A DNA stretch of 64,000 bases from an uncultured cyanobacterium (GCA_963744145.1 CAVUSO010000001.1:4864001-4928000), one strand, 5' to 3'. Positions 27,928 through 46,852 are shown, numbered from the stretch's first letter. A program made the numbers and translations. Notes: generated by a model not told the origin, from the letters alone.

Positions 27928-30900
27928 TCACGTCATAATAATTCGAGAACCTTCTGGAAACTTCTCTATTTTGATTTGCGTTCCTAATTCTTCTCCCAAA
28001 GCTAGAACATGAGTGATTACACCCACTAATTTATCTTGCTGACCCAAAGATTGTAGGATATTTGAGACACTTTGCAGAGTTTCACTATCTAATGTCCCAA
28101 ATCCCTCATCGATAAACAGACTACCTAATTTAGCTCCTCTTGACAGCTTTTCTGAGAGTGCTAAAGCTAGGGATAAAGAAGTAGCAAAGGTTTCACCACC
28201 AGATAGAGTCTGTACCCGTCTTGGTTCACCACCATTCCAGTTATCTTCTACATAATATTCCTTATCGTCATATTTTAAAGCATATCGCTGTTCTGTAAGT
28301 TCTCGCAGAAACACTGTTGCTTGCGCTACTAACTCCTGCTCAAAATGCTTGAGAATATAAGCTTGAAAGCGATCGGATTTTAACTCTTTAGCTAAGATCC
28401 GATAAGTTTCTAAATCTTGTTCTTTGCTGGATAGTTGAGCTTGTAATTTTTGCGAGCGATCGCGATCATCTTTAGCTCTAGTAATCCAAAGTTTTAAATC
28501 GTTGGATTCTTTTTGTGCTTGCTGATATTTTTCTTCAGCAACAGCAACAGCATTTTGATACTGGATAATTATTTCTGCATTTGTACTTTTATCCCCAATT
28601 TCGCTAGTGTTTTGGGTGACAAGAGTTTCTAGTTTAAGTTTTTCATTATCGTGTTGTGTAATTTCCTGCTGCCATTTATTTTGTGATGCTGATGATGCTT
28701 TTCTTTCCTCAAATATTGCTTCTGTAAAATTTTCTGATGACAAACGAGTTTGCCATTCAGTTTCTACTTTTACTTTCTCAGTTGAAGCTAAATTAAAGTC
28801 TTCTCCTGCTTTTAAATTATTTTGATCAGCTTGGCGAAATTGATCACGAGCAGTTTGATAAAGCTGATTTGCTTGCTGAAGACAATCAGCTAAATTGCGT
28901 TTATCTTGCTCTAGCTTTTGGGATAAATTATCATAAGACTCCCCACCAGTAAGTTCTAATAATTTGTCTAATATTTCCTGACGTTGTGTTTTTTGGTGTT
29001 CTACTTCATCGATCGCATCTTGATGCTGGGATTGCATATCTGATAACTTATCTTTAGCAAATTGCAACTTTTGTTCACTTGCTTTTACTTCTCCATCTGC
29101 TTTTTCTTGCTGAATTAAAGCTTCTTTATGTTTACGATCACTTTCCTGTAGTGTTTGCAATTCCTGCTGAAGTTCCTGAACTTCCCATTTATCTATTGTT
29201 AATATAGCAATAATCTGTTGTTTCTCTATCTGAAGATCAGCTTCTTTTTGCGCTAATACTTGGTGGCTTTCATTTTCTTGATTTTTGAGATTATCCCTAT
29301 TTGCTTCAGCTTTAGTTTTGGCTTCAGCATCTTTTTGACGGTTTTTGTCAGCAGTATTAGCGCGTTTTTCCAGTGCTTTAAGATCGGAGGAAGATTCTAG
29401 TTGTGGTAATAAGTGAGCTTCGGGATAAACTCCACCACAAACTGAACAATTATCACCAGGATGTAGGAATGATCGTAAAGCTAACGCATGATTTTGTTTT
29501 CTGCTAGTATCTAATTCAACCTGAGCTTTTTCATACTGTTCTGTAGATTTTTGCCATTTTAAAATAGCAGAATTCAAATCATTTTCAGCGGTGATTAACT
29601 GTTGGGTAATTTTTTGTAACTTAGAACGTTCACTTTCAACTTGCTTGTGAATACCTTCCCATTTAATTAGGAGTGGACTAACTTGATTAAGCTGCTCTAG
29701 TCTGGGGCGATCGGGAGCATATTGAGAAACTTCATTCTTAGCTTTAGTCAAACTCTGATTTTTTTTGTTTAATTCAGTTTCAGCCGTTTTTACAGCTTGA
29801 TTGGATTCAGTGACAAGTTTAACTTTTTCTGCTAATATTTTCTCTAACCGCTCTACTTTATCATTAATTCTGCGTCTCTGCTCTTCATAGATTTTAGCAG
29901 CATTAAGAGCTTCTTCTTGCTGTTTTAGCTGTGGTGCAATTTGATCGTGATTAGCTTGTACTTGACTTAAATTGTCCTCCTGAATTTTCAAAGCTGATTT
30001 TTGAGCAATCAAAGTTTTAGCAGCTTTTTCAACAGCAATTTTGCTATTATTATAACGAGTACGAGCAGAATTTACTGATGTCCAAATAGCTGATAAGCGA
30101 TCGCAAACTCGCGCTTGTTCTAAATTCAGTCTTAACACACTTATGTTTGCAGATTTTTGATTTAATTGCTCAAGTTGCTGTTTCCACTCTGCTAAAGTTT
30201 TCAGACGCTGAAACAATTGATTTTCTGTAGCTAATGCTGTTTGTGCATTCGCTACTGCTTTACTTAAGTGAGGTAATTCTTGTTCGAGCAAATTAGAGCG
30301 ATCGCATCGAGAATTAAATTCTATATCTGAGATCACATCAATTATACTTAGCTCATGTTGAATAGCTTTATATTCACCTCCCAGAGAATTAGCTTTATTT
30401 TCAGCTTCTTGACGCATAGCTGGAAAGATTTTTTCATATCCAGCTAATTGACTTAATATCTTCCGGCGATCGACACCTTTACCTTTAAGGAACTCATCAA
30501 ACTGTCCTTGAGGTAAGAGGATAACCTTGGTAAAAGTCTCAAAATTCATCCTCAAAATATTCTCAATAGTCGCATTAATATCTGCTTCCTTCTGTTCTCC
30601 TAAAGTTTGCCAATCATCTTGAATCCGCTTTTCTAACTTGAAGTTATTCTGGGTTGTTTTAGTCCGGTATAACCACGATCGTAAAACTTGATACTCAATC
30701 TCATCTACCAAAAAACGTAACGATACCTGTAATTTTGAACTACCCTGACTCAATAATTCCTTGGGTTGCGTTTTACCACTAAATCTTGCTACCTTTCCAT
30801 AAAGTGCCAAAGTCATAGCATCAAGCAAAGATGATTTACCCGCACCAGTTGGACCAGTAATTGCAAATAACTCCAGTTTCTCAAAATTAATCTTGGTTTG

Positions 30901-30948
30901 ATTGCGAAAACTGGTAAAACCTTCTAGATTCAGTTCAAGTGGTCGCAT
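27928..30948 (-). CDS. sbcC: SbcC / Rad50-family SMC-like ATPase
   Basis: GPTGAGKSS, LPQGQFD Q-loop, long coiled coil with CSVC zinc hook, TLSGGE, FIDEGFGTLD, VITH. Confidence 0.95.
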   Translation of the reverse strand: MRPLELNLEGFTSFRNQTKINFEKLELFAITGPTGAGKSSLLDAMTLALYGKVARFSGKTQPKELLSQGSSKLQVSLRFLVDEIEYQVLRSWLYRTKTTQNNFKLEKRIQDDWQTLGEQKEADINATIENILRMNFETFTKVILLPQGQFDEFLKGKGVDRRKILSQLAGYEKIFPAMRQEAENKANSLGGEYKAIQHELSIIDVISDIEFNSRCDRSNLLEQELPHLSKAVANAQTALATENQLFQRLKTLAEWKQQLEQLNQKSANISVLRLNLEQARVCDRLSAIWTSVNSARTRYNNSKIAVEKAAKTLIAQKSALKIQEDNLSQVQANHDQIAPQLKQQEEALNAAKIYEEQRRRINDKVERLEKILAEKVKLVTESNQAVKTAETELNKKNQSLTKAKNEVSQYAPDRPRLEQLNQVSPLLIKWEGIHKQVESERSKLQKITQQLITAENDLNSAILKWQKSTEQYEKAQVELDTSRKQNHALALRSFLHPGDNCSVCGGVYPEAHLLPQLESSSDLKALEKRANTADKNRQKDAEAKTKAEANRDNLKNQENESHQVLAQKEADLQIEKQQIIAILTIDKWEVQELQQELQTLQESDRKHKEALIQQEKADGEVKASEQKLQFAKDKLSDMQSQHQDAIDEVEHQKTQRQEILDKLLELTGGESYDNLSQKLEQDKRNLADCLQQANQLYQTARDQFRQADQNNLKAGEDFNLASTEKVKVETEWQTRLSSENFTEAIFEERKASSASQNKWQQEITQHDNEKLKLETLVTQNTSEIGDKSTNAEIIIQYQNAVAVAEEKYQQAQKESNDLKLWITRAKDDRDRSQKLQAQLSSKEQDLETYRILAKELKSDRFQAYILKHFEQELVAQATVFLRELTEQRYALKYDDKEYYVEDNWNGGEPRRVQTLSGGETFATSLSLALALSEKLSRGAKLGSLFIDEGFGTLDSETLQSVSNILQSLGQQDKLVGVITHVLALGEELGTQIKIEKFPEGSRIIMT

Positions 30949-32116
30949 CTTGATTTTCCTTCATTTCATTGTATAGTTCTGCAAACTTCGTTACAACAGC
31001 AGGAGTTGGTGTTGTGTTTAATTCTTCTTGAAAATAGCGTTTAAATTCTTCTACTGGATCAAACTCCTCCCAATGCACAGATTTTTCTGGATTTGACTTA
31101 AATTCTGGATAACGCGGCTCAATTTGCAGCACTTTATCACCACAAATTTTGCGAATTTTGTCAGCTAATCCCATTTGAGGTGATTGCAGATTGATAATTA
31201 CCTTGAGATAACCAGAATAATCACGAAGAGGTTCTAGCTTTTCTTCATAATTGCTCAATTCACATTTAACGATCTGCAAAGGTTTTTGACAGGGAATAGG
31301 TTTAAACTCTGGTTTTTTTGCCGGAGAACCTGGTTCAACATCAATTAAATAAAACCCCTTATCTTCTCCGGATTCATCAAAGTCTATTTGAATCAAAGAA
31401 CCGGAATAGTAAGCAGGAGCAGCAACAGGAATTTGTTGAGGTTTATGGATATGCCCAAGAGCAATATACTGAGCTTCAGCAGGTAAACTTTGTCCAGCTA
31501 ATGCGTAGTTTTCTTGGCTGTGATGACGAGCTTCTGAATTGGCTAATCTAGCACCATTAATAGTAAGGTGAGCCATGAGGATATTTACACCGTCATCTTG
31601 AAAACCAGTGGCTAAGTCTTTGAGCAAGTAGCTTACTCTGTCTCTGTAGTGGTTGATTTGCTGTAATTCGTCCATTCTCCACAAATTCTCAACTGTAAAC
31701 AGTCGTCGTTCTGAAGCAAAAGGCATAGCTGCTACTAACAGTTTACCATTAGGCGTTTCAAGGGTGATTAAACCCCCTTGGTTAACCCGACGAGGTTTCC
31801 CTAAAATCTGCACACCAGCTAAAGATAAAAGATGAGCTATCCCATCAAAACGGACAGCAGAATCGTGATTACCAGCGATCGCTATAGCAGGAATTTTAGC
31901 AATTTGCAACCCTTCAAAAAATTTATAAGCTACTCTCTCAGCATCTGCGATCGGATTAGCAGTTTCAAAAATATCACCTGCAATTAACACCGCATCAACT
32001 TCTAATTCTTTAGCTTGTCGTAAAAGTTCCTTGAGCGCAAATTCAATTTCTGAGGTGCGCTCCTTACCTTTGAGATTACGTCCTAAATGCCAGTCAGATG
32101 TATGAATTAAACGCAC
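30935..32116 (-). CDS. sbcD: SbcD / Mre11-family nuclease
   Basis: HTSDWHLG, AGDIFE, AGNHD, LGHIHKPQ. GTG start with a GGAGG RBS; overlaps sbcC by 14 bp. Confidence 0.95.
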   Translation of the reverse strand: MRLIHTSDWHLGRNLKGKERTSEIEFALKELLRQAKELEVDAVLIAGDIFETANPIADAERVAYKFFEGLQIAKIPAIAIAGNHDSAVRFDGIAHLLSLAGVQILGKPRRVNQGGLITLETPNGKLLVAAMPFASERRLFTVENLWRMDELQQINHYRDRVSYLLKDLATGFQDDGVNILMAHLTINGARLANSEARHHSQENYALAGQSLPAEAQYIALGHIHKPQQIPVAAPAYYSGSLIQIDFDESGEDKGFYLIDVEPGSPAKKPEFKPIPCQKPLQIVKCELSNYEEKLEPLRDYSGYLKVIINLQSPQMGLADKIRKICGDKVLQIEPRYPEFKSNPEKSVHWEEFDPVEEFKRYFQEELNTTPTPAVVTKFAELYNEMKENQDATT

Positions 32117-32226
32117 GATTCCTCCTAAAAACGGTCAAGATCAGCTTCAATGCTGGCAATTTCTGCTTGGCTCAAAAACACTTCTTCTTTGCGTGTAGTA
32201 TATGCAGGGAAAGGGAAATTAACTAA
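32099..32226. repeat. 128-bp direct repeat, copy 1 (herA 3' end + spacer + first sbcD codons)
   Basis: Matches 44044-44171 with 4 mismatches by manual comparison; encodes LVNFPFPAYTTRKEEVFLSQAEIASIEADLDRF*. Confidence 0.95.
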
Positions 32227-32451
32227 TACCAGGTTCATAAATTGACAATACAGATCATACAGCCTATGACCTAATTTATGAAGTCCTGCACTGTGTGACC
32301 TCGGTTGGTCGGGCGGGTTCACTCATATAATCGGTGAGTGGCAAAATTGATCGGTGAACTCGCCCTTACAAATTCTGGTTGATTGTGAGCATAAATTCAC
32401 ATATTATACCTTTTTATGAGCTAACTTGATCTTGAATGTCAGATTTTTTAG

Positions 32452-33604
32452 TAGACATCTCCTAAAACTTATAAGCTAGTTATGGTAAGCATTTTAGCGT
32501 TTTTCCTGTTTAAATTTATCATCGCTGAAACGTATATTTTTCGTAGTTTTACTTCATTGATCCAATTTCAGGTTAAAACTATGACTCACTATGATCTCGA
32601 TTTCTTTATCTATTTCTGACGGATTAACTACTTTAATAAGTAAAGCATTTATTCTTAATCTTACTAACCCGCAAATCGTTAAAAATATTGATTTATATTT
32701 GATTTTACTTAATCTAAATCTCTCTTGCATTATCCTAAATATTTTGATAATTCTAATTAAATGTTCGACAAATATTCTCTCTGATGAGATCTCTTTATTT
32801 GTTTCTTTTTGTGATTGAGTTAATTCACCCCCTTTCGGTTTTTTGGCTGGTGTTTTAATTTGTTCTTCTCCTATGTAAGCTTTATCTCCACTAAATTTTT
32901 GGGTTTTTGAAAATTTACTTAAAGTTTCTCTACATATTTTTATGTCACTTGTAGGTCCTGGTTCTCCTGCTACTACATCGACAATATCTTTAGCTTTTGG
33001 TAGACTGATCACTTGGTTTTTAAAAGTATGATTTTTCTTTTTACCTGAGTAATATTTTTTCTGCTCCTCATAAGACAAAGCCCTTTCTATTGGCTGTTCT
33101 TCGCTGTCTACTATTAGTTCATAATCAGTAAGTTTTTCCAGGATTTCTGATGAATTTTCCTCAAACTTTTTTACTTGTTCTAATAGAGAACATGGCAAAG
33201 CTTCTCTTAATATTTGTTGCCAATAGTGAAAAATCTTATGAGCAGTTGATTCACTTACTTGAAACATCAATCCTAATAATTGAAAATTTAGATGATGTCT
33301 AAGATAGACTAAGGTTAAAATGATTTGCTCTTTTTTTTCTAGTTTTGATTCTCTCCCTCCTCCTGATTTAATTATTCTTACTTTCTGTTCTTCTTGTTCT
33401 TGTTCTTTTTGGTCATGCAAAATTAAAGCATATTCTATCAACTGTTCTAATTGGTTATAATTAATTCCCAATAATCGTTTAGTTTCCTTCTGGTTTTTTT
33501 GGATGTATTCCCAAGTATAATTACTCATTTTAGTAATTACTCCATTAATGTTCTAGATCATTATACCATATTTTTGGTTTTTCATTATATTATGGAGATG
33601 TCTA
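32452..33604 (-). mobile_element. IS5-family (ISL2-like) insertion sequence, apparently intact
   Basis: Terminal inverted repeats TAGACATCTCC...GGAGATGTCTA around a 324-aa transposase; markedly AT-rich and lacks HIP1. Confidence 0.85.
32554..33528 (-). CDS. DDE transposase (HTH_Tnp_4 + DDE_Tnp_4 type)
   Basis: LTLVYLRHH HTH region, IVDSEEQPIER, YYSGKKKNHTFK, GDKAYIG, RIFVEHLI. Confidence 0.9.
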   Translation of the reverse strand: MSNYTWEYIQKNQKETKRLLGINYNQLEQLIEYALILHDQKEQEQEEQKVRIIKSGGGRESKLEKKEQIILTLVYLRHHLNFQLLGLMFQVSESTAHKIFHYWQQILREALPCSLLEQVKKFEENSSEILEKLTDYELIVDSEEQPIERALSYEEQKKYYSGKKKNHTFKNQVISLPKAKDIVDVVAGEPGPTSDIKICRETLSKFSKTQKFSGDKAYIGEEQIKTPAKKPKGGELTQSQKETNKEISSERIFVEHLIRIIKIFRIMQERFRLSKIKYKSIFLTICGLVRLRINALLIKVVNPSEIDKEIEIIVSHSFNLKLDQ

Positions 33605-33636
33605 GTGAATCAGACCAAATCCGAACATATTTATCA

Positions 33637-33747
33637 CCTGTAGGGGCGGGTTCACCGACGAATTTACCACACACAAATAACCCTTGTGCCGAGCGTAGTC
33701 GAGGTATTGATGAACCCGCCCTGCCCCACAGATCACCTTGATGAACT
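33637..33747. repeat. 111-bp composite REP-like repeat; inverted copy at 43577-43687
   Basis: CCTGTAGGGGCGGGTTCACC...GATCACCTTGATGAACT; 5 mismatches to the reverse complement of 43577-43687. Confidence 0.85.
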
Positions 33748-33844
33748 CCTTTCCATTTAAACATTGTGGCACTAGGCATACAACTCATCATCTACAATTG
33801 ACTCAGGTAGATTATTATCTATTGAGCTTATACTGAGACTTTTT

Positions 33845-34129
33845 ATGTTAAGCGTAACAGTTGATGAAATTCAGCGCGATCCTTCAAAGTATCTGCGTCA
33901 AGTGGAGGCAGGTGAAACAATTTTGATTCTTCAAGCAGATCAAGCGATCGCTGAAATGAGGCCCATCTCGTCGAGCGGTAAGCAGCTACGACCATTCGGC
34001 TTGTGTACTGGTGAGTTCACCGTCCCTGCCGATTTTGATGCACCTCTGCCAGAAGAGATTTTGAGCGCATTCGAGGGTGATCGGTTAGGCGTGAATGTTA
34101 AACTTGACCCAGAAATGCAAGGAGAGTAA
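33845..34129 (+). CDS. Phd/YefM-family antitoxin (with DUF2281-like tail); C-terminus extended across a rearrangement junction
   Basis: YLRQVEAGETILI and RPFGLCTGEFTVPADFDAPLPEEIL. The last 16 residues come from the duplicated block starting at 34080. No toxin partner is present. Confidence 0.8.
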   Translation: MLSVTVDEIQRDPSKYLRQVEAGETILILQADQAIAEMRPISSSGKQLRPFGLCTGEFTVPADFDAPLPEEILSAFEGDRLGVNVKLDPEMQGE

Positions 34130-34134
34130 TCACA

Positions 34135-34332
34135 GTGGCTTCTATCACAATTGACCTTTCAGAGCGCCAATTTCAAAGGCTACAAGATTTAGCAACAGTG
34201 CATGGAATTGCACTTGAAGTTCTATTAAAGGCAAGTTTAGAGGATTGGCTCAATTCTCAAAAGAGTGAGTTTGTTGAGGCAGCTAATTATGTGCTGACGA
34301 AAAATGCTGAACTGTATCGACGTTTAGCATAA
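34135..34332 (+). CDS. Small RHH-like antitoxin / DNA-binding protein partnered with Doc toxin
   Basis: 65 aa ending KNAELYRRLA; the stop overlaps the doc start (TAATG). Confidence 0.8.
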   Translation: MASITIDLSERQFQRLQDLATVHGIALEVLLKASLEDWLNSQKSEFVEAANYVLTKNAELYRRLA

Positions 34333-34715
34333 TGCAGTTTCTAAGGTTAATTGAGGTGTTAGAACTGCATCGTCAAGTCATTGAGCAATCTGGCGGAGCA
34401 TTCGGTATCCGCGATGTAGGTTTATTGGAGTCAGCGATCGCTCAACCCCGAATGACGTTTGGTGGAGAAGAGCTATACCCAAGCTTGCTTGAGAAAGCAG
34501 CAGCATTAGGGTTTTCTATGATCATGAACCATCCATTTGTAGATGGAAACAAACGTACAGGTCATGCGGCGACAGAGACTTTTCTGTTTCTAAATGGAAT
34601 GGAAATCAGCGCCTCTGTGGATGAACAAGAGCGTGTGGTTTTAGAGATCGCATCGGGTGAGCTAGGGCGTGAGGCATTTGTAGAATGGTTGCAACAGAAT
34701 ACAGTCGCCAGCTAA
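34332..34715 (+). CDS. doc: Death-on-curing (Fic/Doc) family toxin
   Basis: Intact Fic motif HPFVDGNKRTG; also GIRDVGLLESAIAQP. Confidence 0.9.
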   Translation: MQFLRLIEVLELHRQVIEQSGGAFGIRDVGLLESAIAQPRMTFGGEELYPSLLEKAAALGFSMIMNHPFVDGNKRTGHAATETFLFLNGMEISASVDEQERVVLEIASGELGREAFVEWLQQNTVAS

Positions 34716-34734
34716 CAAGTCGCGGCAAATGAGG

Positions 34735-34789
34735 ATTTGGGTATGAGTTACCGATCCTTTGTACACCCTATGAACTTCTTAGAGATTGA
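34735..34789 (+). pseudogene. 3' remnant of a PIN/VapC-like toxin gene
   Basis: Reads GYELPILCTPYELLRD*, a typical C-terminal P-I-x-TP-x-E-L tail; the rest is missing. Confidence 0.5.
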
Positions 34790-34791
34790 TT

Positions 34792-34959
34792 ATGTATCAA
34801 GACGCAATTGTAGAAGAGATTCACAGAATTCGTGAGGAGTATTCACGGTCGTTCAACCACGACTTGAAAGCACTCTTCGCTGATCTGCAAAAGCAGCAAG
34901 CAGCAAGCGGTAGAAAAGTTGTGAGCTTGTCACGAAAGCGTGGTCTAACTACAGGTTAG
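34792..34959 (+). CDS. Small 55-aa antitoxin-like hypothetical protein
   Basis: MYQDAIVEEIHRIREEYSRSFNHDLKALFADLQKQQAASGRKVVSLSRKRGLTTG*; below the ORF-track cutoff. Confidence 0.65.
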   Translation: MYQDAIVEEIHRIREEYSRSFNHDLKALFADLQKQQAASGRKVVSLSRKRGLTTG

Positions 34960-35034
34960 AGTGGACGACCAAGAGATATTGGTGAGGATGCAAAGGCAGT
35001 CGAATAAATTGTTCTGCCGCGTGCGTTGTTAGAT
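34943..35034 (+). other. Degenerate integron attC-like site
   Basis: RYYYAAC-type GTCTAAC at the 3' end of a small gene and GTTRRRY-type GTTAGAT about 85 bp later; the two are near-complementary. Confidence 0.45.
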
Positions 35035-35167
35035 TCAATGGCCTAATCTGAGCAACGCCATCCAACATTTTGACCGATTATCACTTCTCAACGATATCCA
35101 TCTGGCATTACAGACTGCTATACTTCATAAACATGGAATAGGCTGTATCCTGCTAGGATGGCTAGAT

Positions 35168-36736: not shown

Positions 36737-39700
36737 TTAAATTCCAATAGCGACAAACGCTGACCAATAATATGGATTAGCAAAGGGTAATGGTTGACGA
36801 TTGAGGCTTAGACTTCCTGCTAAAGAGTCCTTAAATTTGTTGCGATCGCGTTTGGGTGAGTTTTCAAATGCTTCCTCAACTAAGTTTTGAAATTGTGGAT
36901 AACTTTGGATTCTTGCCCACTTTTTATAGGTTAATGTCCTTAACCATTTCTGAGCTTTATTGAGAGAAATTGCCACATCTCCTGTTTTAATTTTCGGTAG
37001 TCGTTGGAGGTTGTGGTAAAATTTGACCATCAATAAAGTTGTGGCGATCGGATCGACACTCCAAAGAGTGCTAACAACACTCAAACTACCTGCATACAAA
37101 AAGCCACTGGGTAAACCAATATATTCATCGCTGATGCTGTTGGGATCTGTCATCCCACTTTCACAAGCAGAAAAGGTGACAAGGCGACATTGATTCAAGT
37201 AAAATTTTTCAAATACTTCACCTAATGTTAGGTTAGCTTCTTCTCCTAATTTACCTTCTGGATCAGCAAGCAGTAAAGCTGATTTGAGAGGCGATTCAGG
37301 ATAAAATTTGCCGTGACAAGAGAAGTGAATGCAGTGAGAGGAACGCATTTGTTCCATACGCTGATAGACATTTGCCTCTGTTGCTTCTGCTTCTTTCAGA
37401 ATAATGGTTTGCTCTAAATCGAATTGTTGGCGAATTTTATCAATTTCCAGTTGAGAACCAAGTAAAGGTCTAGCAGGTTGTCTGGTAGGATTTTGAATAG
37501 CAAATAAGCGAGTAAAATCAGGTCGATTTTGTGCTTGGTCTTTTACTTGTTTCAGTAATTGACAACTGGGGGCATAACCCACACCTTTAGGGAACCGCTC
37601 AAACAACAATTTACCGTCAGCTAGGGGTAAAGCATGAAGGGGAAATAAATGTAAGTATCGATGGGGAATCAGAATGATGCGGTTACATTTAGCACCGCTT
37701 TCAGAAAAGCATTTATCTATAGAGGAAATAATTTCATCAATATGCAGAATTTTGGCAAGATTTTGAAGGCGATCGGCTAAATTTTTAATCCATTGAGTGT
37801 TTTGTTTATGATAGGAATCACGATACTCTTTATCCCAATTTTCTAAATCTGTCATATTTGCAAAAGCTACAACAATCGGCTGGGGATGATGGTGGTGAGT
37901 GCTAATGAAAGTAAAAATCTGACTGCTGGTGATGTACCATTCAAGAATAGCTGTGTTTTCATCGATGAGGTATTGGATATCGCTGAAGGAAATGGGTTGA
38001 ACTTTTTGGGTAAATGTAAAGCTAGAATCTATTTCGTTAATTTCTGCTAGCAGTTCATCTTGTTGTTGTTGCAATTGAGCTAATTCTTGTCGCAGTCGTT
38101 CTATTTGGTCGCGATTTTTTTCCTCAGATTCTCGGTTGCTGATGAGTATTTCTAATTCTCTCTGTTTAGCTGGAATTTGTCGCCGTTGTTGTTCTAGTTG
38201 ATGACAATGAGTTTGGTAAAGTTCAGTGTTGTGGTAAATGTCGCTTTTGGGGTAGATGTCTTTGTTAGCTAGGAGTTCAACTAAGTTACGGGCTTTACTG
38301 CGTTCCACATATTCAATTGCTTGAACATAATATTGCGGTTCTGTAGTAGCAAGTTCGAGGCAAACTTCCACCATATTTTGATAGAGCTTATTCCATTGTT
38401 CAGCTAATTTCCGCTTGTCTGCTGTGCCACCTTTAACTATCTCACTCCGTAACGACTCTACTGTATTGATCGCTTCAGCATAGGTATCAGCAGCTGGTTT
38501 GAATTTAGAATCAGTTTGGTAAGTCAGACCCAAATTAAATAAAGTTGCAGCATGAGCTTGAGGAAAAGCAGCGCGGGTTAGGACTTCTAGGGAGCTAGAG
38601 TAGGAGGCGATCGCCAGTTCGAGATTCTCAGCCCGCTCTCCCCTGATTCGGTATAAGTAGGCATTTCCCAGATTATTTTGCGTCCTCGCCCAATCTTGGG
38701 GAAAAGCAGCGCGGGTGCAAATTTCTAGGGCGCTAGAGTAGAAGGCGATGGCCAGTTCGAGATTCTCAGCCCGCTCTCCCCTGATTCGGTCAGAGTAGGC
38801 AAGTCCCAGATTATTTTGCGTCATTGCCGAATATTGAGGAAAAGCATCACGGGTTAGGACTTCTAGGGAGCTAGAGAAGGAGGCGATGGCCAGGTCGAGA
38901 TTCTTTGCCCGCTCTCCCTTGATTCGGTCAGAGTAGGCAGTTCCCAGATTATTTTGCGTCATTGCCCAATCTTGGGGAAAAGCAGCGCAGGTTCTGACTT
39001 CTAGGGAGCTAGAGTAGGAGGCGATGGCCAGGTCGAGATTCTCAGCCCACTCTCCCCTAATTCGTTTACCGTAGACAATTCCGAGATTATTTTGCGCCCT
39101 TGCCCATTGTTCGGGAAAAGCAGCGCGGGTATAAACTTCTAGGGAGCTAGAGTAGGAGGCGATGGCCAGGTCGAGATTCTCAGCCCGCTCTCCCCTAATT
39201 CGGTTACCATAGGCAATTCCGAGATTATTTTGCGTCCTTGCCCATTGTTCGGGAAAAGCAGCACGGGTGTAAACTTCTAGGGAGCTAGAGTATGAGGCGA
39301 TGGCCAGTTCGAGATTCTCTGCAAGCTTTCCCCTGATTCTGTATAAGTAGGCAGTTCCCAGATTATATTGCGTCATTGCCCATTGTTCGGGAAAAGCAGC
39401 GCGGGTTCGGACTTCTAGGGAGCTAGAAAAGAAGGCGATGGCCAGTTCGAGATTCTTTGCCCGCTCTCCCCTGATTCGGTCAAAGTAGGCAAGTCCCAGA
39501 TTATTTTGCGTCCTTGCCCAATCTTGGGGAAAAGCAGCGCGGGTTCGGACTTCTAGGGAGCTAGAAAAGAAGGCAATCGCGAGTTCGAGATTCTCCGCCC
39601 GCTCTCCCCTGATTCGGTCAGAGTAGGCATTTCCCAGATTATTTTGCGTCTTTGCCCATTGTTCGCTTCCTGGCTCCTGATTTCTTAAAACTATTTGATA

Positions 39701-40207
39701 ACCAGTAATTGCAATCTCTATATTATTTACTCTATTTCCATGCGAAAAGTTTTGAATATCGATGCTCAAATTCTCAATCGTGCCAATAATATTTCTAGTT
39801 TCTTCTGGATATTGGGCAATTAAATTTTCAGCCTCTTGTTGTAAAATTTTTGCGAAACGCCCATTCAAAAGATGTTTTTGTTGAACAAGAATTGGATAAA
39901 CTACCGCTCTATCGCTATTACTCTCATATTCTGCCTGCAATAATTGTTGAATAAACTCGACATACTGACGATTATCTTCATTCATACCCAAGAATTCTCC
40001 TAGCTGATTAGCAACGTTTCGCAAGAAATTAGCCCCATCATCCTCTCTTTGCTCTGTTAGCCTTACCGCTACTGTTTCGCAAGTTTGCAGAAACCCCGCA
40101 TCCAGCAATTTTGAATTCATCTGTAATATCTGCGGTTCCTCACCACTAGGACAGTCCAGCAGCGATTGAATGAGATTAAGATAAGCTTGAGTAAGGCTTT
40201 CATCCAT
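36737..40207 (-). CDS. TPR-repeat CHAT (caspase-like) protease
   Basis: Eight 46-aa TPR-like repeats, catalytic dyad motifs HFSCHG and FSACESG, C-terminal PYYWSAF. Confidence 0.92.
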   Translation of the reverse strand: MDESLTQAYLNLIQSLLDCPSGEEPQILQMNSKLLDAGFLQTCETVAVRLTEQREDDGANFLRNVANQLGEFLGMNEDNRQYVEFIQQLLQAEYESNSDRAVVYPILVQQKHLLNGRFAKILQQEAENLIAQYPEETRNIIGTIENLSIDIQNFSHGNRVNNIEIAITGYQIVLRNQEPGSEQWAKTQNNLGNAYSDRIRGERAENLELAIAFFSSSLEVRTRAAFPQDWARTQNNLGLAYFDRIRGERAKNLELAIAFFSSSLEVRTRAAFPEQWAMTQYNLGTAYLYRIRGKLAENLELAIASYSSSLEVYTRAAFPEQWARTQNNLGIAYGNRIRGERAENLDLAIASYSSSLEVYTRAAFPEQWARAQNNLGIVYGKRIRGEWAENLDLAIASYSSSLEVRTCAAFPQDWAMTQNNLGTAYSDRIKGERAKNLDLAIASFSSSLEVLTRDAFPQYSAMTQNNLGLAYSDRIRGERAENLELAIAFYSSALEICTRAAFPQDWARTQNNLGNAYLYRIRGERAENLELAIASYSSSLEVLTRAAFPQAHAATLFNLGLTYQTDSKFKPAADTYAEAINTVESLRSEIVKGGTADKRKLAEQWNKLYQNMVEVCLELATTEPQYYVQAIEYVERSKARNLVELLANKDIYPKSDIYHNTELYQTHCHQLEQQRRQIPAKQRELEILISNRESEEKNRDQIERLRQELAQLQQQQDELLAEINEIDSSFTFTQKVQPISFSDIQYLIDENTAILEWYITSSQIFTFISTHHHHPQPIVVAFANMTDLENWDKEYRDSYHKQNTQWIKNLADRLQNLAKILHIDEIISSIDKCFSESGAKCNRIILIPHRYLHLFPLHALPLADGKLLFERFPKGVGYAPSCQLLKQVKDQAQNRPDFTRLFAIQNPTRQPARPLLGSQLEIDKIRQQFDLEQTIILKEAEATEANVYQRMEQMRSSHCIHFSCHGKFYPESPLKSALLLADPEGKLGEEANLTLGEVFEKFYLNQCRLVTFSACESGMTDPNSISDEYIGLPSGFLYAGSLSVVSTLWSVDPIATTLLMVKFYHNLQRLPKIKTGDVAISLNKAQKWLRTLTYKKWARIQSYPQFQNLVEEAFENSPKRDRNKFKDSLAGSLSLNRQPLPFANPYYWSAFVAIGI
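38555..39658 (-). repeat. Eight tandem 138-bp coding repeats
   Basis: Unit WA(R/M/K)TQNNLGxAYxxRIRGERAENLELAIAxxSSSLEVxTRAAFP(E/Q)(Q/D); near-identical DNA. Confidence 0.9.
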
Positions 40208-40489
40208 TGGGTCAGCACTGATGTAGATTGAGTAATAATTATTGAGTTTTACAGCCTTTTTTTACCATATCAGAACTTATTGAGGTTGCCCAGTGAAGCT
40301 GGCTTTGTCCCGTTCCCAGGGTTGGAAGTTAGTAAAAGTCGCAGAAGTTGCAACTTGATGTTCACGCGAACAAATTTAACAATTGCTAGTCTCAACGAGG
40401 AATGCGATCGCACTCTCCATCAACTCCATCAGAAAGCGATCGCGCCCATCCAGACAAAACCCAAGTAATCAGGAAAATAGTGATCGCCC

Positions 40490-40646
40490 TCACCCACCGC
40501 CAACTCTATAAATTTACGCATATAAGGCGACCTATATCCTAACACGATATTAGACATTAGGCACTCCAACTGCAATTAACTCGTTAGCTATCCTCACCTC
40601 AGTTCCATCTCGCTGAATCCAAATTTTTCCTTCCCTAATCTTGAGG
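40490..40646 (-). pseudogene. XisI-family 3' remnant, copy 1
   Basis: Minus strand reads LKIREGKIWIQRDGTEVRIANELIAVGVP..NIVLGYRSPYMRKF; direct repeat of ~41147-41272. Confidence 0.7.
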
Positions 40647-40665
40647 GGCGATCGCACCTCCCTAT

Positions 40666-41097
40666 TCACCCTAATCCTAATTTCTTTCGCACCTCCTCAC
40701 TACTCATAACTTTACCCGCTTTTTGCTGTTGTCTGGAACGCTCGATCATCTCCAAAAACTGAGGATTGTTACTTAAAGAAACCGTTTCAATATCTGCGAT
40801 CGCTACTAAAACTGCTACAGGTTTACCGTCATAAGCTGCGATCGCAGGTTCTCTTCCCAAACTGCGGACATAATCGGCTAATGAGGCTACACAATCTGAC
40901 GATTGTCGCTGTAAAGACTTTTTGATTAATGTTAGTGAATCTAGATTCGTTTCTAGGGGTAAACTTTCTAAATCCGCAATCGGTGTCAGCACAGCTACAG
41001 GAGTTTTCTGGATTGTAACAAGCAACGGCTCTTTCCCCAAAGCTTGAATATATTTACCCAAAGATTCAGTTGCTTGTGTAAGTTCTATTGATTTCAT
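40666..41097 (-). CDS. Orphan antitoxin-like protein with an internally duplicated Phd-like unit
   Basis: Two similar halves (LGKEPLLVT..PVAVL / LGREPAIAA..PVAVL) and tail SLSNNPQFLEMIERSR...SSEEVRKKLG. Confidence 0.65.
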   Translation of the reverse strand: MKSIELTQATESLGKYIQALGKEPLLVTIQKTPVAVLTPIADLESLPLETNLDSLTLIKKSLQRQSSDCVASLADYVRSLGREPAIAAYDGKPVAVLVAIADIETVSLSNNPQFLEMIERSRQQQKAGKVMSSEEVRKKLGLG

Positions 41098-41146
41098 AGT
41101 TCAATTTCCTCCTGTCAGTCAATTATCCTCCTCTCTAACCTCATAA

Positions 41147-41272
41147 CTACCCCACCGCCAACTCGGTAAATTTACGCATATAAGGGGCGACCTATATCCT
41201 AACATGATATTAGACTTAGGCACTCCAACTACAATTAACTCTTAACTATCCCCACCTTAGTTCCATCTTGCT
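41147..41272 (-). pseudogene. XisI-family 3' remnant, copy 2
   Basis: Degenerate direct repeat of 40493-40613. Confidence 0.6.
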
Positions 41273-41285
41273 AATGCTATTCGGA

Positions 41286-42687
41286 TCAAGGCTTTCTGAG
41301 AAATATCAAGGTTTCATAATAATCGTCTAAGGAGCGAGGGCGAGCATTTTTATTCGATTTTTGTAACTGAACATCATGCAAAGATTCAACTATCAAACCT
41401 AGTAACTGTGCTTCTTCTGCCAGAATTTCTGCCGATTGAACAACATAAAGTTTCTCCCTAGTTGAGAACTGATAAAATGTACTTTGCTTACCACTTACTA
41501 TGACTGCTAAAGCACCTGGTCTCAGGTATTGATACATTTGTTTTAAGGCTTTACGCATATCCAGAAAATAGCAGGCTGTGGGAGAAGCCTTAATTTTCCT
41601 CAGATCATCGTGATTGAGCCACTCAACAATATCTTTTTCTCTATTTAAAAGCGAAGCTAAGTCAACTGACCTATGATACATAGAGCCGATCGAATCATCA
41701 GCAAGATCGTTGACATCTTCATGATTTTTGATGCCCAGCGCGATCAATGATGGCGCTCTTGCCTCAGTACGGGCGTATTGCAATACGCCCGTACCCGACC
41801 ACTAGCAGCAGGAAGATAAGGAGGAGAAGTTACCAGAATATCGAATAATCCTAAATTTTTATCTATACTACGCGCATCTGCACAAATAGATTGTGCCTTA
41901 GAAAATGTCAGCTTGATGGTTTCTTTTAGCCACTCAATAGTTGCCACAACACGAATATATTTCTGAGCTGAATCCCGAAAACTTTCCGTGGGGCAACGTT
42001 TCGTCAAAGTCAGTGAAAACCTACCTACACCTGTGCCCAAAAATCGCATCTTAATCTTGCGTGCGATCGCATCAGACATCAAAACCTGAAAAAAACCTTG
42101 TCGCTCTAGACTTCCACAAGAAACAGCATACCTTAACCTTTGAATTTGAGTTCCAATCTCATCCATAACCTCTTGAGTCATATTTCTATTCTTCATTAAC
42201 CAAACCGGAAACTGAACAGGATGATCACAGTATTGATCTTTCCTTAGATAGAATAAATTTAGCTGATTGCTCTGGGATGTCATTAAAGCTTCTCAAACTG
42301 AACTAACTTCTTCTTCAAGCTCTGCACTAGAGATGTTAAGGATATCGATCTTATTCTGAGCAATTAGAACAGACAGAGGATCAATGTCAGTACCAATACT
42401 TTCCATACCCAAGATTGCTGCTTCTAACATTGTAGTTCCACTACCTGAGAAACAATCAATGACCCGATGGCTACCATGACCTAAACGTTGACGACATATA
42501 TTCAAAGTTGAACGAACGAGTCTGGGAAAAAACTTGGCTTTGTAGTAATGAATATCGTGGGAAGGTTTTGAATACCTTCTATAGATTGTTCAGGAAGGAA
42601 AGCTTTTAGTTCCATCTCGGCCAGAATTACATCTCCTTCTAAAGAGATATTGTGACGTAGTTTAAATATAAAATGTGATGTACTCAT
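41286..42687 (-). pseudogene. Fragmented N4-cytosine/N6-adenine DNA methyltransferase
   Basis: Motif I VIDCFSGSGTT (42293-42505), motif IV LVTSPPY (41744-42283) and the C-terminal LRPGALAVIV...ETLIFLRK (41286-41783) lie in four broken ORFs. Confidence 0.82.
41767..41794. repeat. Perfect 28-bp palindrome inserted in the methyltransferase gene
   Basis: GTACGGGCGTATTGCAATACGCCCGTAC; same family as 6493-6518 and 6930-6973. Confidence 0.9.
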
Positions 42688-42888
42688 AGATAGAGATTAT
42701 TACTAATAATATCAAGACTGGTAATTAACTTTAGTCTATCATTCATGTATATAGATTCAGTGAAACATATAATTGCGTCGTAAAGATAGAAAAGGTCATT
42801 TCTTGAAAAGGTTAAAAAGTTCTCAGGAATAGCCAAATTTAAGGCTCTTGAGTATTTCTCCTTAGTCCAAATTACATCTGTCATCTCT

Positions 42889-43092
42889 CAATACGGTTCG
42901 TTTAAGGATATTTTGGGAGATATCGACGGAAGTTGGGCGAAGCATTCGGGTCTAATATTACTCCCCTTCGACTACGCCCTTCGACTTCGCTCAGGGTAAA
43001 CTCAGGGTAAAATTTGAGCGTTCAATTGTCGCCCGAATGCTATGCCTCCGGCACGCTACGCGAACGCCCCTACACTTAACCGAACCGTATTG
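42889..43092. mobile_element. MITE-like element with nested short repeats
   Basis: Terminal inverted repeats CAATACGGTTCGTTTAAG...CTTAACCGAACCGTATTG; a shorter inverted relative lies at 55243-55377. Confidence 0.7.
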
Positions 43093-43128
43093 TGTCATCG
43101 ACCATTCCTTGATCACAATTATAGGAAG

Positions 43129-43527
43129 ATGTTGAAGATGTCTGAAGTCCCATTTATTCAAGTTGAAGTAGCACCGATTTTCAATCACAATGCTAGGGCA
43201 CTAAAAAATATTGAAGTGCCAATGATTGAGATCATCCAATTTTGCGATCGCTGGCAGATTAGCGAATTTGCTCTATTTGGCTCTGTTTTGCGATCCGATT
43301 TCCGTCCTGATAGTGATATTGATGTGATGGTGCAATTTCTTATGGAAGCTCACCCAACTTTTTTAAGTTTGGAACAAATGGAAGAGGAGTTAAAAATAAT
43401 TTTTAATCGGGAAATTGATTTAATTACTCGATCGGGAATTGAAACCAGTCGAAATTACTTACGCCGCCAAGAAATACTTTCTTCTGCTCAGGTGATTTAT
43501 GCAGCGCGACCTTCAATTTTTGCTTGA
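43129..43527 (+). CDS. Minimal nucleotidyltransferase (MNT) antitoxin, copy 1
   Basis: ALFGSVLRSDFRPDSDIDV (GSx10DxD). Start uncertain. Confidence 0.85.
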   Translation: MLKMSEVPFIQVEVAPIFNHNARALKNIEVPMIEIIQFCDRWQISEFALFGSVLRSDFRPDSDIDVMVQFLMEAHPTFLSLEQMEEELKIIFNREIDLITRSGIETSRNYLRRQEILSSAQVIYAARPSIFA

Positions 43528-43560
43528 TATGTTGCAATCAGCAGAACTAATTATACAGCC
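43499..43560 (+). pseudogene. HEPN/DUF86 toxin, only the first ~20 codons remain
   Basis: MQRDLQFLLDMLQSAELIIQ overlaps the MNT 3' end and is then cut by a REP cluster. Confidence 0.7.
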
Positions 43561-43576
43561 TATTCCAGGTTTATGA

Positions 43577-43920
43577 AGTTCATCAAGGTGATCTGTGGGG
43601 CAGGGCGGGTTCATCAATACCTCGACTACGCTCGGCACAAGAGTTATTTGTGTGTGGCAAATTCAAGGGTGAACCCGCCCCTACAGGGATGCACCAAAAA
43701 ATCGATCAGGATTAGAGGATTACAAGATTAACAGGATTTGTAGGGGCAGGTGAATGAATTTATGATCACAATCAACCAGGATTTGTAGGGGCAGGTTCAC
43801 CAATCAATTCTGCTCCAAACAGATTACGACAGGTAAGATGCCTGTCCTACTCATAAACCTGCCCAACCAACACAGATCACTTACAATCTCTGACAGGCAA
43901 GATGCCTGTCCCACACCATT
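43577..43920. repeat. Cluster of REP-like palindromes
   Basis: Inverted copy of 33637-33747, two GGATTTGTAGGGGCAGGT units, and two GACAGG(C/T)AAGATGCCTGTC units. Confidence 0.75.
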
Positions 43921-44043
43921 CATGCCAAATCTTACTGTACTTCATCAACAGGTCATCCGCTGTAGACTACACAACTCAATGCTCAAAAGACCAGTTTATT
44001 GCCCAAGTTGCAGACTGATCAGATAGCGATCGCGATCGACATT

Positions 44044-44171
44044 TGTATGAATTAAACGCACGATTCCTCCTAAAAACGGTCAAGATCAGCTTCAATGCTG
44101 TCAATTTCTGCTTGGCTCACAAACACTTCTTCTTTGCGTGTAGCATAGGCAGGGAAAGGGAAATTAACTAA
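44044..44171. repeat. 128-bp direct repeat, copy 2 (true herA end + 6-codon sbcD stub)
   Basis: GTG CGT TTA ATT CAT ACA at 44061-44044 reproduces the sbcD start, then diverges. Confidence 0.95.
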
Positions 44172-45821
44172 AATCGGTGCGGGAACTTCTGGTTGATGTA
44201 TAAACATTGTGCCAGATTTTAGAAATAAAGCTCGCTTGCGACAAGAACCGGTCAAAAAGTTGTATTCAGGACGTTCTGCTTCTGCTGAATCTAATCTTCC
44301 CACCACACGAATAGCTGCTTGTCCAACCACACGACGTTCTACTTCTGAAGCGGTTTGTTGTGCCCCGATTAAAATAATTCCCAGGGAGCGTCCTCGTTCT
44401 GCAATGTCTACTAGCAAATCTTTAATCGGGCTACGTCCATCACGGGGGGCATATTTGTTTAACTCATCCAAAACGATAAAAACAACAGGTTCTCTACCCT
44501 GTTTTTCTTTTTGAAAAAATAGCTTTTGCAGTAATACACCCACAACAAATTTTTGAGCGCGGGCGGTAAGTTTATGGATATCAACTACAGTTAGTTGAGC
44601 ATCTGAGGAAAGGGGATTAAGTTGATATTTCGCAACTTCATTCGGTAATAAATCGCCCCGAATTAAATGACTAACTTCACTACTAATACCATATAAACGT
44701 CGAATCATGGCCTCGGCTGTAGCTGGGACATTTCGACCTAACCAACGTCTGTCTTCTTCATTCAGGAGTTTATGTTCTAAAAAGTCGATTAAATCTCTAA
44801 AAGTCTCGATTTTGGTTTTGGTTTTACCTTTTTCTCCAAACTCTTCTACTTCTAAATGCGCTTGAATTTTCTGCCGTTCCTTTTTATCATTATCTTCGGC
44901 TAGTCTTGCTAATTTTTCTTCTACTGTTGTGACTAGATAAGATAAATTACCTCGATCTAAATCTTCTCCAGTAAATAAGAAACGAAATAGCCGATCGCGA
45001 CATAGTTCTCGGATACTCCACAAATATACTGATATCCCCTCAGAACGCTGTTCTAAATCAGAGTCAACCGTTCTGGAATCTTTTTTTGGTGTAGCGCGAA
45101 AACTGGCACTTTTAAAAGGTTGTACAGGTAATTTCATCAATTCATATTTATTTTTATCCTTTTCTTTTTCTGCATTGCCATAACTTTGATTGAGCTTGTC
45201 TAAAAAGAATAAATCCTCACCTTTGACATTAAAAATTAATGCTTTTGTATTAGCTTTGTAAGCACCTAATATGTGAGAATTAAAAATAGAATAGAGTAAA
45301 AACAATGCGTAGGATGTTTTCGTCGCGACTCCAGAAACACCAGAAATATTGACATGAGCGCCTTTCTCACCATTAATAAATGAATAGTTAAAATATGCCG
45401 GATTGCCATTATTCATAATACCTGCTGGAATCGGGGTATCCATGCTATCAAAATATAAAGCAGATGCTAGTTGCTTATCTACAGCTAGCTTCACCGGATC
45501 ACCAGGTTGAGGAGGTAAATATTCTTCTGGTTCAATTCTGGTAACTTGAACGTGAGCAGTGTAAGAAATATTAACAGGCAAAGTTCCTTTTTTTGCGACT
45601 AATAAAGTATCAGTATCAAACTCTGCTCCTTCATATTGAGTACGAACGTAGTCAACCACACCATAAAAGTAAACAATTTCCCCATCATCAGGACGTTGAG
45701 TTTTCACTTCCACCACATCATCTAGACGCAATACTTTTCCCGAGTCAACTGCGATCCAAAATTCCAAAGGAGTAGCTTCTTTATTCCCTAGCACAAAACC
45801 AATTGGTTGAGAAATTGTCAT
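44070..45821 (-). CDS. herA: HerA-family (FtsK/HerA) DNA translocase ATPase
   Basis: N-terminal HAS-barrel-like region, variant Walker A ISGVSGVATKTS, Walker B IVLDELNKY, ERGRSLG arginine finger, GAQQTAS. Confidence 0.88.
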   Translation of the reverse strand: MTISQPIGFVLGNKEATPLEFWIAVDSGKVLRLDDVVEVKTQRPDDGEIVYFYGVVDYVRTQYEGAEFDTDTLLVAKKGTLPVNISYTAHVQVTRIEPEEYLPPQPGDPVKLAVDKQLASALYFDSMDTPIPAGIMNNGNPAYFNYSFINGEKGAHVNISGVSGVATKTSYALFLLYSIFNSHILGAYKANTKALIFNVKGEDLFFLDKLNQSYGNAEKEKDKNKYELMKLPVQPFKSASFRATPKKDSRTVDSDLEQRSEGISVYLWSIRELCRDRLFRFLFTGEDLDRGNLSYLVTTVEEKLARLAEDNDKKERQKIQAHLEVEEFGEKGKTKTKIETFRDLIDFLEHKLLNEEDRRWLGRNVPATAEAMIRRLYGISSEVSHLIRGDLLPNEVAKYQLNPLSSDAQLTVVDIHKLTARAQKFVVGVLLQKLFFQKEKQGREPVVFIVLDELNKYAPRDGRSPIKDLLVDIAERGRSLGIILIGAQQTASEVERRVVGQAAIRVVGRLDSAEAERPEYNFLTGSCRKRALFLKSGTMFIHQPEVPAPILVNFPFPAYATRKEEVFVSQAEIDSIEADLDRF

Positions 45822-46852
45822 TTATTGACTCCAAACGATGCTAAAAAGTTTTGCACTCGTCGCTTAATTAATGTAGCATCACCCATCCTTCTACCTAATT
45901 CTCGTTCCAAAGCACTCACAGGTGCAAGATTTTGGGGAGCGCGGGGATCTCTTGATGGATGAGAAGCATAATAGGGAATTAAATGACAAGTTTGATTGGC
46001 GATTTGTCTGGCTCTGTCTATCCCATTTTTTCGAGATAATTCCAGCCGGACAATACCATGCAAATCGTGATAGCCAAGCTGATTATTCAAATGTTGAGAA
46101 CTACCAGATTTCAAATACCATGAATACAGGGATCTATCTTGAATTTCAAAAATAGGTGTGCGCTGTCCTGGCAACAATTTCCATAGTAAAGTAGCATATT
46201 TTTCAGGTAGGTATTGCTTGTGCATGGTTTTAACATAGCCCAAGGTAAAAATAGGTGATTCATATCGTAATGAACCATCCCGAATTACCAAGGTATCTGT
46301 ATCTTTGATATTTAGTTTGCCTACTAGCTGTTCCTCTGCGGCTAACATAGCATTTTGGACAATTGCATTTCTGACTTCAGGGGTATTAGGTTGATTGCTT
46401 TTAACTGCTCGATAAAGTAATTTGGCTTTGCTTCCCAACGGACAATGAATGGGTGTAGATACAGCTTCTTGTTCACCACCAAAACCCACAATTCGATGGA
46501 TATCAATTTCCGGTTCTATGTAACTTGCTTTAGGAATAGTTCTGTCTACGATCACAGCACCCACAGCGATCGTACCAAATACACCATAGATGATTGTATT
46601 GCCATCACCACCGACCAGGGCAGCATCTAACCGTCGTCGTCCGTCTGTAAAGATCAGACGATTAGGTAAGGATGTGGGAGCTTGAGACTCAAAACTATCC
46701 CAATGATCAGTCTCTACTGTCGGGTTAATATCACTATCTGAAGGTGCAAGTTCTTCGCTGATTTGAATTGGTGGCTCGTAGTCGTTACTCCAAGATTCGA
46801 TGCGAAAATTATGCGATCGCCAGAAGTCACTTACATAATTATCCATAGGCAT
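45818..46852 (-). CDS. nurA: NurA-family 5'-3' nuclease
   Basis: FTDGRRR, VIRDGSL, GYVKT, RAPQNLAPVSALE; ATGA overlap with herA. Confidence 0.8.
   Translation of the reverse strand: MPMDNYVSDFWRSHNFRIESWSNDYEPPIQISEELAPSDSDINPTVETDHWDSFESQAPTSLPNRLIFTDGRRRLDAALVGGDGNTIIYGVFGTIAVGAVIVDRTIPKASYIEPEIDIHRIVGFGGEQEAVSTPIHCPLGSKAKLLYRAVKSNQPNTPEVRNAIVQNAMLAAEEQLVGKLNIKDTDTLVIRDGSLRYESPIFTLGYVKTMHKQYLPEKYATLLWKLLPGQRTPIFEIQDRSLYSWYLKSGSSQHLNNQLGYHDLHGIVRLELSRKNGIDRARQIANQTCHLIPYYASHPSRDPRAPQNLAPVSALERELGRRMGDATLIKRRVQNFLASFGVNK

Follow-up and report, generated by a model that had tools for sequence, protein, structure and literature searches.

The 64,000-nucleotide window analysed here (C1:4864001-4928000; all positions below are window coordinates unless a locus is named) lies within the 7.7-Mb genome, 96% complete, of an uncultured cyanobacterium (G000) and encodes homologs of NurA, HerA, SbcD (Mre11 family) and SbcC (Rad50 family) on the minus strand. 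We interpret these four genes, with moderate confidence, as an accessory nurA-herA-sbcD-sbcC module of bacterial type that probably came from a Nostocales donor. Its products would act jointly on DNA ends in recombination and repair, and a neutral event probably divided it into a nurA-herA and an sbcD-sbcC part.

All four reading frames are intact at the positions given by an earlier reading of the window, hereafter the original prediction (Table 1), and both overlaps described there, ATGA between the tandem genes nurA and herA and 14 bp between sbcD and sbcC, were confirmed. The junction consisting of the herA stop codon, a GGAGG ribosome-binding site (RBS) and the sbcD start is present on either side of the interruption, as had been noticed. 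This duplication is real and larger than first described, being a 128-bp direct repeat with 4 mismatches (96.9% identical) and 11,817 bp between its copies. It comprises the last ~33 herA codons, the stop codon, the RBS and the first 6 sbcD codons, and blastn identified just these two copies genome-wide. The proposal of a former single operon is borne out, since the four genes form one uninterrupted run in 13 of 13 related loci. Pairwise dN/dS (the ratio of nonsynonymous to synonymous substitution rates) against eight relatives ranges from 0.055 to 0.38, which points to long-term purifying selection and is no test of the short period since the split.

Table 1. Features of the module, its interruption and the upstream scar (aa, amino acids; ORF, open reading frame; R and R', copies of the 128-bp repeat).
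Feature	Position	Strand	Remarks
nurA	45818..46852	-	bacterial-type NurA nuclease, 344 aa; ORF call, homology
herA	44070..45821	-	Deinococcus-type HerA ATPase/translocase, 583 aa; ORF call, homology
sbcD	30935..32116	-	Mre11-family nuclease, 393 aa, GTG start, phosphoesterase motifs intact; profile and motifs
sbcC	27928..30948	-	Rad50-family ABC ATPase, 1006 aa, accessory clade apart from housekeeping sbcC; profile, motifs, tree
Stretch upstream of nurA	46853..46930	-	conserved in relatives, most similar to the copies of the NIES-73 plasmid and G107; one weak sigma-70-like match
Repeat copy 1 (R)	44044..44171	-	128 bp; working herA 3' end, stop, RBS, dead 6-codon sbcD start
Repeat copy 2 (R')	32099..32226	-	128 bp; dead herA 3' end, RBS, working sbcD start
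Interruption	32227..44043	.	11,817 bp; toxin-antitoxin genes and remnants, broken methyltransferase, CHAT-TPR gene, IS5, multicopy short repeats
Block A	43100..43532	+	98.8% identical to 47405-47837 (A')
Methyltransferase fragments	41286..42687	-	broken type II DNA methyltransferase-like gene
Phd/YefM antitoxin-like gene	40666..41097	-	within its own 124-bp direct repeats (40493-40614 / 41151-41272, 90%)
TPR-CHAT protease-like gene	36737..40207	-	1156 aa, 138-bp internal repeats
Block B	34080..34419	+	phd tail, small antitoxin-like ORF, doc start; 96.8% identical to 47066-47405 (B')
Full Doc/Fic gene; Phd gene	34332-34715; 33845-34129		whole in the interruption copy only
IS5-family element	32449..33604	-	transposase 32554-33528; 99.9-100% identical to four other genome copies
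Collapsed copy B'+A'	47066..47837	+	blocks joined at 47405, sharing 1 nt; truncated doc and phd

The encoded proteins are of bacterial type, because bacterial models outscore archaeal ones and HerA and NurA are orthologous to the Deinococcus proteins. HerA matched D. radiodurans HerA (PDB 7F6D/7WRW/7WRX) over residues 6-566 (E 8e-166) and, in the alignment to this protein (drHerA), keeps Walker A K168/T169, Walker B D452/E453, the DNA-gripping R460 and the equivalent of R552. In the Deinococcus complex, HerA D487/E488, R495 and R552 and NurA D53, K201 and R309 are reported to be essential, HerA D220 to be catalytic and HerA K175/T176 to bind nucleotide and Mg (PMC9960219). All of these HerA residues map to conserved residues here, and NurA D70, K208 and R304, which correspond to drNurA D53, K201 and R309, are invariant in 21/21 rows. 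The Walker A motif (SGVSGVATKTS) had been called non-canonical; the same motif is found in D. radiodurans HerA and represents the normal form of the family. As drHerA is identical there, an odd Walker A marking a dead or new ATPase was ruled out. The assignment of the first gene to NurA stands on matches to D. radiodurans NurA (E 8e-21) and T. maritima TM1739 (E 2e-8), while the Pfam NurA cut-off was missed (18.5 vs 21 bits). By orthology to the solved Deinococcus complex, NurA-HerA is predicted to function as an ATP-dependent nuclease/translocase.

SbcD exceeds the TIGR00619 cut-off (177.5 vs 77.65 bits), and SbcC aligns over its full length to TIGR00618 with 268 bits, below the cut-off of 478.5. 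SbcC is a split ABC ATPase with a coiled coil, in which Walker A, the CxxC hook, the signature, Walker B/D-loop and the H-loop are intact. Archaeal Mre11/Rad50 models reached at most 74/68 bits on SbcD/SbcC, with bacterial models scoring 2-4x higher, and no archaeal HerA or NurA was among the PDB matches of HerA and NurA. The description of the operon as archaeal-style thus did not hold, and import from archaea is excluded by the model scores, the Deinococcus-type HerA and NurA and the gene order. As a measure of breadth only, without gene context, HerA-like representatives number 1,686 at E 0.001 and 331 at 1e-30.

The operon is rare in the order of its host. A HerA orthologue was detected in 12/401 genomes of the phylum, 3/61 relatives and 16/401 genomes of the order (G000 included), so that a ubiquitous cyanobacterial core locus, the alternative named at the outset, does not apply. 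A pattern scan of GTDB recovered 13 loci from Nostoc, Amazonocrinis, Umezakia, Calothrix, a Coleofasciculaceae genome and one Dehalococcoidia, all with contiguous genes (nurA being cut by the contig end in two). Another set of 12 operon loci from 11 genomes comprised 10 with all four genes and 2 with herA alone; 11 further loci included 8 with all four genes (one herA truncated), one cut by a contig end, one with herA alone and one of a divergent clade without a NurA match. In G636 (L080:9076-10254) herA lacks its last ~185 residues and abuts sbcD, and herA stands alone in G308 (L032), G405 (L076) and G019 (L039), so the operon breaks up elsewhere too.

Furthermore, PLSDB yielded six records, and the whole module is located on plasmids in the four inspected, which belong to Sphaerospermopsis NIES-73, Nostoc UHCC 0870, Aulosira NIES-50 (divergent) and a Streptomyces with the gene order herA-sbcD-sbcC-nurA. 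Carriage by phages was dismissed, as none of 50,697 phage records matched NurA. Seven Nostoc loci share one chromosomal site, which lies between metabolic genes. At this site, an ORF of ~238 aa precedes nurA (L001:8010-8726; like-sized in L003-L005, L008 and L009), for which no Pfam or PADLOC match was obtained.

Of 38 SbcC rows, 2 near-duplicates were dropped. In the tree of the other 36, the operon copies group in a clade separate from core cyanobacterial SbcC (support 100). The operon SbcC of G000 branches beside those of Umezakia and the NIES-73 plasmid (support 99), and its housekeeping SbcC falls outside Nostocales and family f5. The approximately unbiased (AU) test (13 rows) rejects a grouping of the seven Nostocales copies without G000 (p 0.0002); this clade follows taxonomy but was chosen with knowledge of an earlier tree. 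A quick HerA tree does not fix the position of G000 within the Nostocales group. Housekeeping SbcC, a single gene, served as the host marker because gyrB gave no match in G000 at 1e-200. At that threshold gyrB was found in 16/16 other genomes; the G000 gene may be intein-split. Phylogeny and synteny, proposed earlier as checks, place the operon copy of G000 among Nostocales copies and show the genes contiguous in relatives. Given one host marker, the most economical explanation would be acquisition from a Nostocales donor.

G000 encodes separate housekeeping sbcC and sbcD genes elsewhere, and SbcC of the housekeeping clade is present in 16/16 photosynthetic carriers checked. In addition, two RecJ and two RecQ proteins exceeded their cut-offs. 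The suggested search for recBCD/addAB or a second sbcCD yielded no RecC match in G000, with the RecB and AddA models below cut-off, next to the second sbcC and sbcD. Lack of RecC is no mark of carriers, as it is shared by non-carriers, and a RecC-like match was obtained in 4/4 carriers of family f36. Filling in for missing RecBCD was therefore discarded as a reason for carriage because it does not discriminate.

The proposed mechanism is drawn from characterised homologues. SbcCD (Mre11-Rad50 type) would bind and clear a blocked or hairpin DNA end, on which the HerA ring, possibly docked on SbcD, could load. HerA would then pump duplex DNA into the NurA dimer, which would unwind and cut it, providing a host that lacks RecBCD/AddAB with an added RecBCD-like route next to RecJ/RecQ. 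The joint action of four proteins in one complex and their role in repair are thus suggested by analogy. Structure prediction of the HerA-SbcD pair gave a score of 0.42 vs 0.00 for the best control, with runs agreeing in at least 92% of contacts and a partner pLDDT (predicted local distance difference test) of at least 81. The mark applied is reached by 116/157 solved complexes and 2/215 mismatches, and of the pairs reaching it, 18 solved complexes and both mismatches score at most 0.60. The model weakly suggests a HerA-SbcD contact, and in Sulfolobus HerA is reported to co-precipitate with Mre11-Rad50 (PMC2288612).

Several observations weigh against an acquired, functional repair module, besides the choice of the AU-test clade mentioned above. 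A promoter scan before sbcD-sbcC returned 6 sites vs 6.9 expected, which is chance level, and no LexA-type box occurs within 400 bp upstream in 13/13 operon copies. About 96% of the sampled order genomes have no match. RecC is absent in 17/17 photosynthetic genomes scanned, and its absence is described as the norm in large-genome cyanobacteria (PMC5101192). The only other genome of the host's family gave no match, and no close relative offered an unsplit allele. Deletion of nurA-herA is reported to raise ultraviolet (UV) resistance in D. radiodurans and T. thermophilus, and T. kodakarensis HerA-NurA to cut both strands without leaving 3' tails (PMC9960219, PMC12977600); both results count against a simple repair role. 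Upstream of nurA, promoter counts were at chance level as well.

The knock-out phenotypes and the two-strand cutting also speak for defence against phages or plasmids, which the original prediction rightly paired with repair as the competing reading. Here, SbcCD would recognise free or protein-capped ends of invading DNA and HerA-NurA would degrade both strands, the module doing the job of RecBCD against linear foreign DNA in RecBCD-less cyanobacteria. We consider this possible and less probable than repair or recombination, which we favour; both functions can coexist, as with RecBCD. An antiviral role for HerA-NurA has been proposed (PMC12977600), and HerA-NurA and SbcCD are described as accessories of archaeal CRISPR cassettes, a precedent for links to defence (PMC3973734). 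The patchy distribution over 16 genomes of the order, the transfer between lineages indicated by the SbcC tree and the AU test, the plasmid locations next to type I restriction-modification or CRISPR-Cas systems and the invariable redundancy with housekeeping SbcCD would all suit such a function. Some carriers have defence genes within 5 kb, namely Shango SngA/SngB (G619), ZorC (G503), PsyrA/T (G677, divergent clade) and PDC-M28 (G059), where neighbourhoods of housekeeping sbcC used as controls gave kinase, Uma2-type and AAA matches only.

Set against this, PADLOC matches within 5 kb are alike for the operon (12/116 proteins in 7/19 genomes) and housekeeping sbcC (5/90 in 5/13), 12/19 operon genomes have none, and some excess of defence neighbours is expected for any mobile cargo. 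Matches of the four proteins to defence models are weak or due to generic ATPase domains (HerA reaching no more than 30 bits), with no PADLOC match for NurA. Moreover, many operon sites lie among housekeeping genes (petBD, pheT, plsY, aroE, pantothenate kinase), and the operon SbcC tree partly follows the host tree, with f5 sister to Nostocales, which suggests long residence. The toxin-antitoxin, methyltransferase and CHAT neighbours, offered originally as a hint of defence, are weak evidence because they are confined to the interruption and the upstream scar of G000; when they were used as queries against related loci, none turned up next to the operon.

A more specific and still more tentative version is a plasmid-spread machine in which HerA would dock directly on its own SbcD. 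Free or capped DNA ends would be sensed by Rad50-Mre11 and both strands destroyed by HerA-NurA, giving cyanobacteria that lack RecBCD an equivalent form of innate immunity. If correct, it would provide a mesophilic, genetically tractable model for what HerA-NurA-Mre11-Rad50 does. Several gene contexts were recorded alongside. In G619 (L079:5843-9762), the SngA and SngB matches start right behind sbcC in the same direction, in G677 PsyrA/T adjoins the module, and in the Aulosira copy a TGT-like gene lies behind it. A gene for an IrrE/CapP-like metallopeptidase, possibly a sensor of DNA damage or infection, is located just upstream in G677 (L081:9276-11310) and on the Aulosira (L057:7945-8730) and Streptomyces (L056:8150-9322) plasmids. 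Elsewhere in the window, a gene at 16940-21118 (-) encodes a 1392-aa protein with a long WD40 tail and, presumably, judged by eye, three repeated N-terminal TIR-like segments.

In the direction of the genes, the chromosomal order is A'-B'-nurA-herA-R, followed by A-cargo-B-phd-IS5-R' and finally sbcD-sbcC, with A/A', B/B' and R/R' as three colinear duplicated blocks. Block A contains what we take to be an MNT nucleotidyltransferase antitoxin-like gene and the start of a HepT-like remnant. The interruption therefore repeats the A-to-R stretch colinearly, the two copies having complementary losses; this fits duplication and deletions and not a foreign island. The unit from the HepT-like remnant via nurA-herA to sbcD codon 6 would have been doubled by tandem duplication or by single-crossover integration of a sister copy. 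Deletions would then have removed most of the toxin-antitoxin cluster from copy 1 and nurA together with most of herA from copy 2, so that each gene survives once, and sbcD-sbcC would now rely on a new promoter. In this reconstructed order, the split likely arose by neutral local duplication followed by deletions.

Comparable scars are frequent in G000. The genome contains 56 local direct repeats in two copies (80-600 bp, 2-30 kb apart, identity of 90% or more) at 38 sites, 13 of which have a gene end in one copy only, and in several pairs one copy is a collapsed fusion of the other's two blocks with 1-9 nt shared. Duplication or integration followed by deletion is a recurrent process in this genome, for which the herA-sbcD split is ordinary. 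HIP1 lay within 30 bp of scar ends in 6/16 hand-picked pairs (of the 56) vs 0.20 expected, which is not significant (p 0.064). The Phd-like gene between 124-bp repeats (40493-41272) represents a smaller scar nested inside the interruption. Short multicopy repeats with palindromic cores and ~50-140 genome hits each are located at 27125-27380, 32296-32449, 33605-33747, 42880-43092 and 43545-43964; the HepT-like remnant is cut by one of them, and the IS5 element sits in another.

The 128-bp repeats could suggest that the 11.8-kb interruption is an element of the integrative or developmentally excised kind and that its removal turns the operon on, since joining at the att-site-like direct repeats restores herA and sbcD. 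Cargo between direct repeats that restore a target gene is typical of integrative elements duplicating a gene 3' end, such as e14 in icd, and of heterocyst excision elements. Unlike these, the interruption encodes no tyrosine or serine recombinase among the ORFs scanned, only the IS5 DDE transposase; its cargo blocks are also duplicated upstream of nurA, outside the repeats, which have drifted by 3%, and the genome contains the many similar scars described above. Furthermore, the contigs of a near-identical strain (run X1) span all 30 bins without a listed joint between the repeats; these contigs are possibly not independent of this assembly, and rare forms drop out of them. A second run, X2, likewise lists no joint but comprises small divergent pieces only and was left aside. 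We regard this account, and with it programmed excision, as highly improbable.

Alternatively, the module in G000 might be a decaying passenger in which the split severed sbcD-sbcC from its promoter and stop codons have not yet accumulated. The chance-level promoter count before sbcD and the truncated or solitary herA genes of other genomes would agree with this. Within the repeat, the working herA copy shows two derived changes at the amino-acid level and has diverged by the same number of differences as the dead one, and private changes at otherwise invariant sites exceed those of most relatives (9, 12, 13, 20), among them P20S and G22S in NurA beside a conserved Trp near the pin motif. These changes are, however, mostly conservative and partly due to a longer branch, and four repeat differences are too few for a selection test. 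The four reading frames and every catalytic residue mapped are preserved, in contrast to broken genes inside the interruption, and exactly one whole copy of each of the four genes survives. On balance decay appears unlikely, and neutral splitting of a retained module is preferred. NurA copies of family f36 also vary around the pin Trp.

In the literature searched, which leaves aside older comparative papers on bacterial HerA and supplements, no description of the operon in cyanobacteria was found. Constantinesco 2004, Iyer 2004 and Krishnan 2020 are said to discuss bacterial HerA neighbourhoods and may already list the operon, perhaps including cyanobacterial examples. The main text of a survey of cyanobacterial DNA repair (PMC5101192) does not mention nurA or herA, and a 2026 review (PMC13748450) describes bacterial nurA without four-gene synteny, a statement contradicted by the contiguous bacterial loci reported above. 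The four-gene bacterial layout is already known from Oceanithermus; particular to the present case is its rare accessory, plasmid-borne cyanobacterial form.

Findings on the role of HerA-NurA diverge: the pair is essential in Sulfolobus, Deinococcus and Thermus become more UV resistant when they lose it, and an antiviral function in place of resection is advocated in a 2026 study (PMC12977600). A dispensable, mesophilic, plasmid-borne copy beside intact housekeeping sbcCD would permit a clean gain-of-function test in laboratory cyanobacteria or E. coli, which essential archaeal genes do not.

Among known systems, NurA-HerA of D. radiodurans and T. thermophilus (PDB 7F6D, 7WRW, 7WRX; PMC9960219, PMC5448004) shares with the G000 pair the same orthologues, Walker A variant and essential residues, as well as the tandem gene arrangement and a host without RecBCD but with RecJ/RecQ. 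The Thermus pair is reported at a fixed site in all genomes analysed (PMC5448004), whereas the cyanobacterial genes are coupled to their own sbcD-sbcC, rare in the order, additional to housekeeping sbcCD and found on plasmids. Closest in layout is the nurA-hepA(herA)-sbcD-sbcC cluster of Oceanithermus profundus, in which a bacterial HerA is likewise followed by sbcD and sbcC and for which a mode of action resembling that of the archaeal operon has been proposed (Blesa et al. 2017, PMC5448004); the cyanobacterial operon differs from it in forming its own clade, in the evidence for transfer within the phylum, in its second-copy status and in the split. The anti-phage systems Sir2-HerA and DUF4297-HerA resemble the module in combining a HerA motor with an enzyme effector and in being patchy and mobile, but here the partners are NurA and SbcCD, with no Sir2 or DUF4297, and HerA matches PADLOC models only at the level given above. 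The archaeal operon of Sulfolobales and Thermococcales (PMC13748450, PMC2288612, PMC12977600) unites the same four families, and the HerA-Mre11/Rad50 interaction shown in Sulfolobus is weakly predicted here. Its gene orders, given as herA-mre11-rad50-nurA or nurA-rad50-mre11-herA (PMC13748450), differ from nurA-herA-sbcD-sbcC, and in contrast to the archaeal operon the G000 module encodes bacterial-type proteins and is accessory rather than essential in a host that retains another SbcCD.

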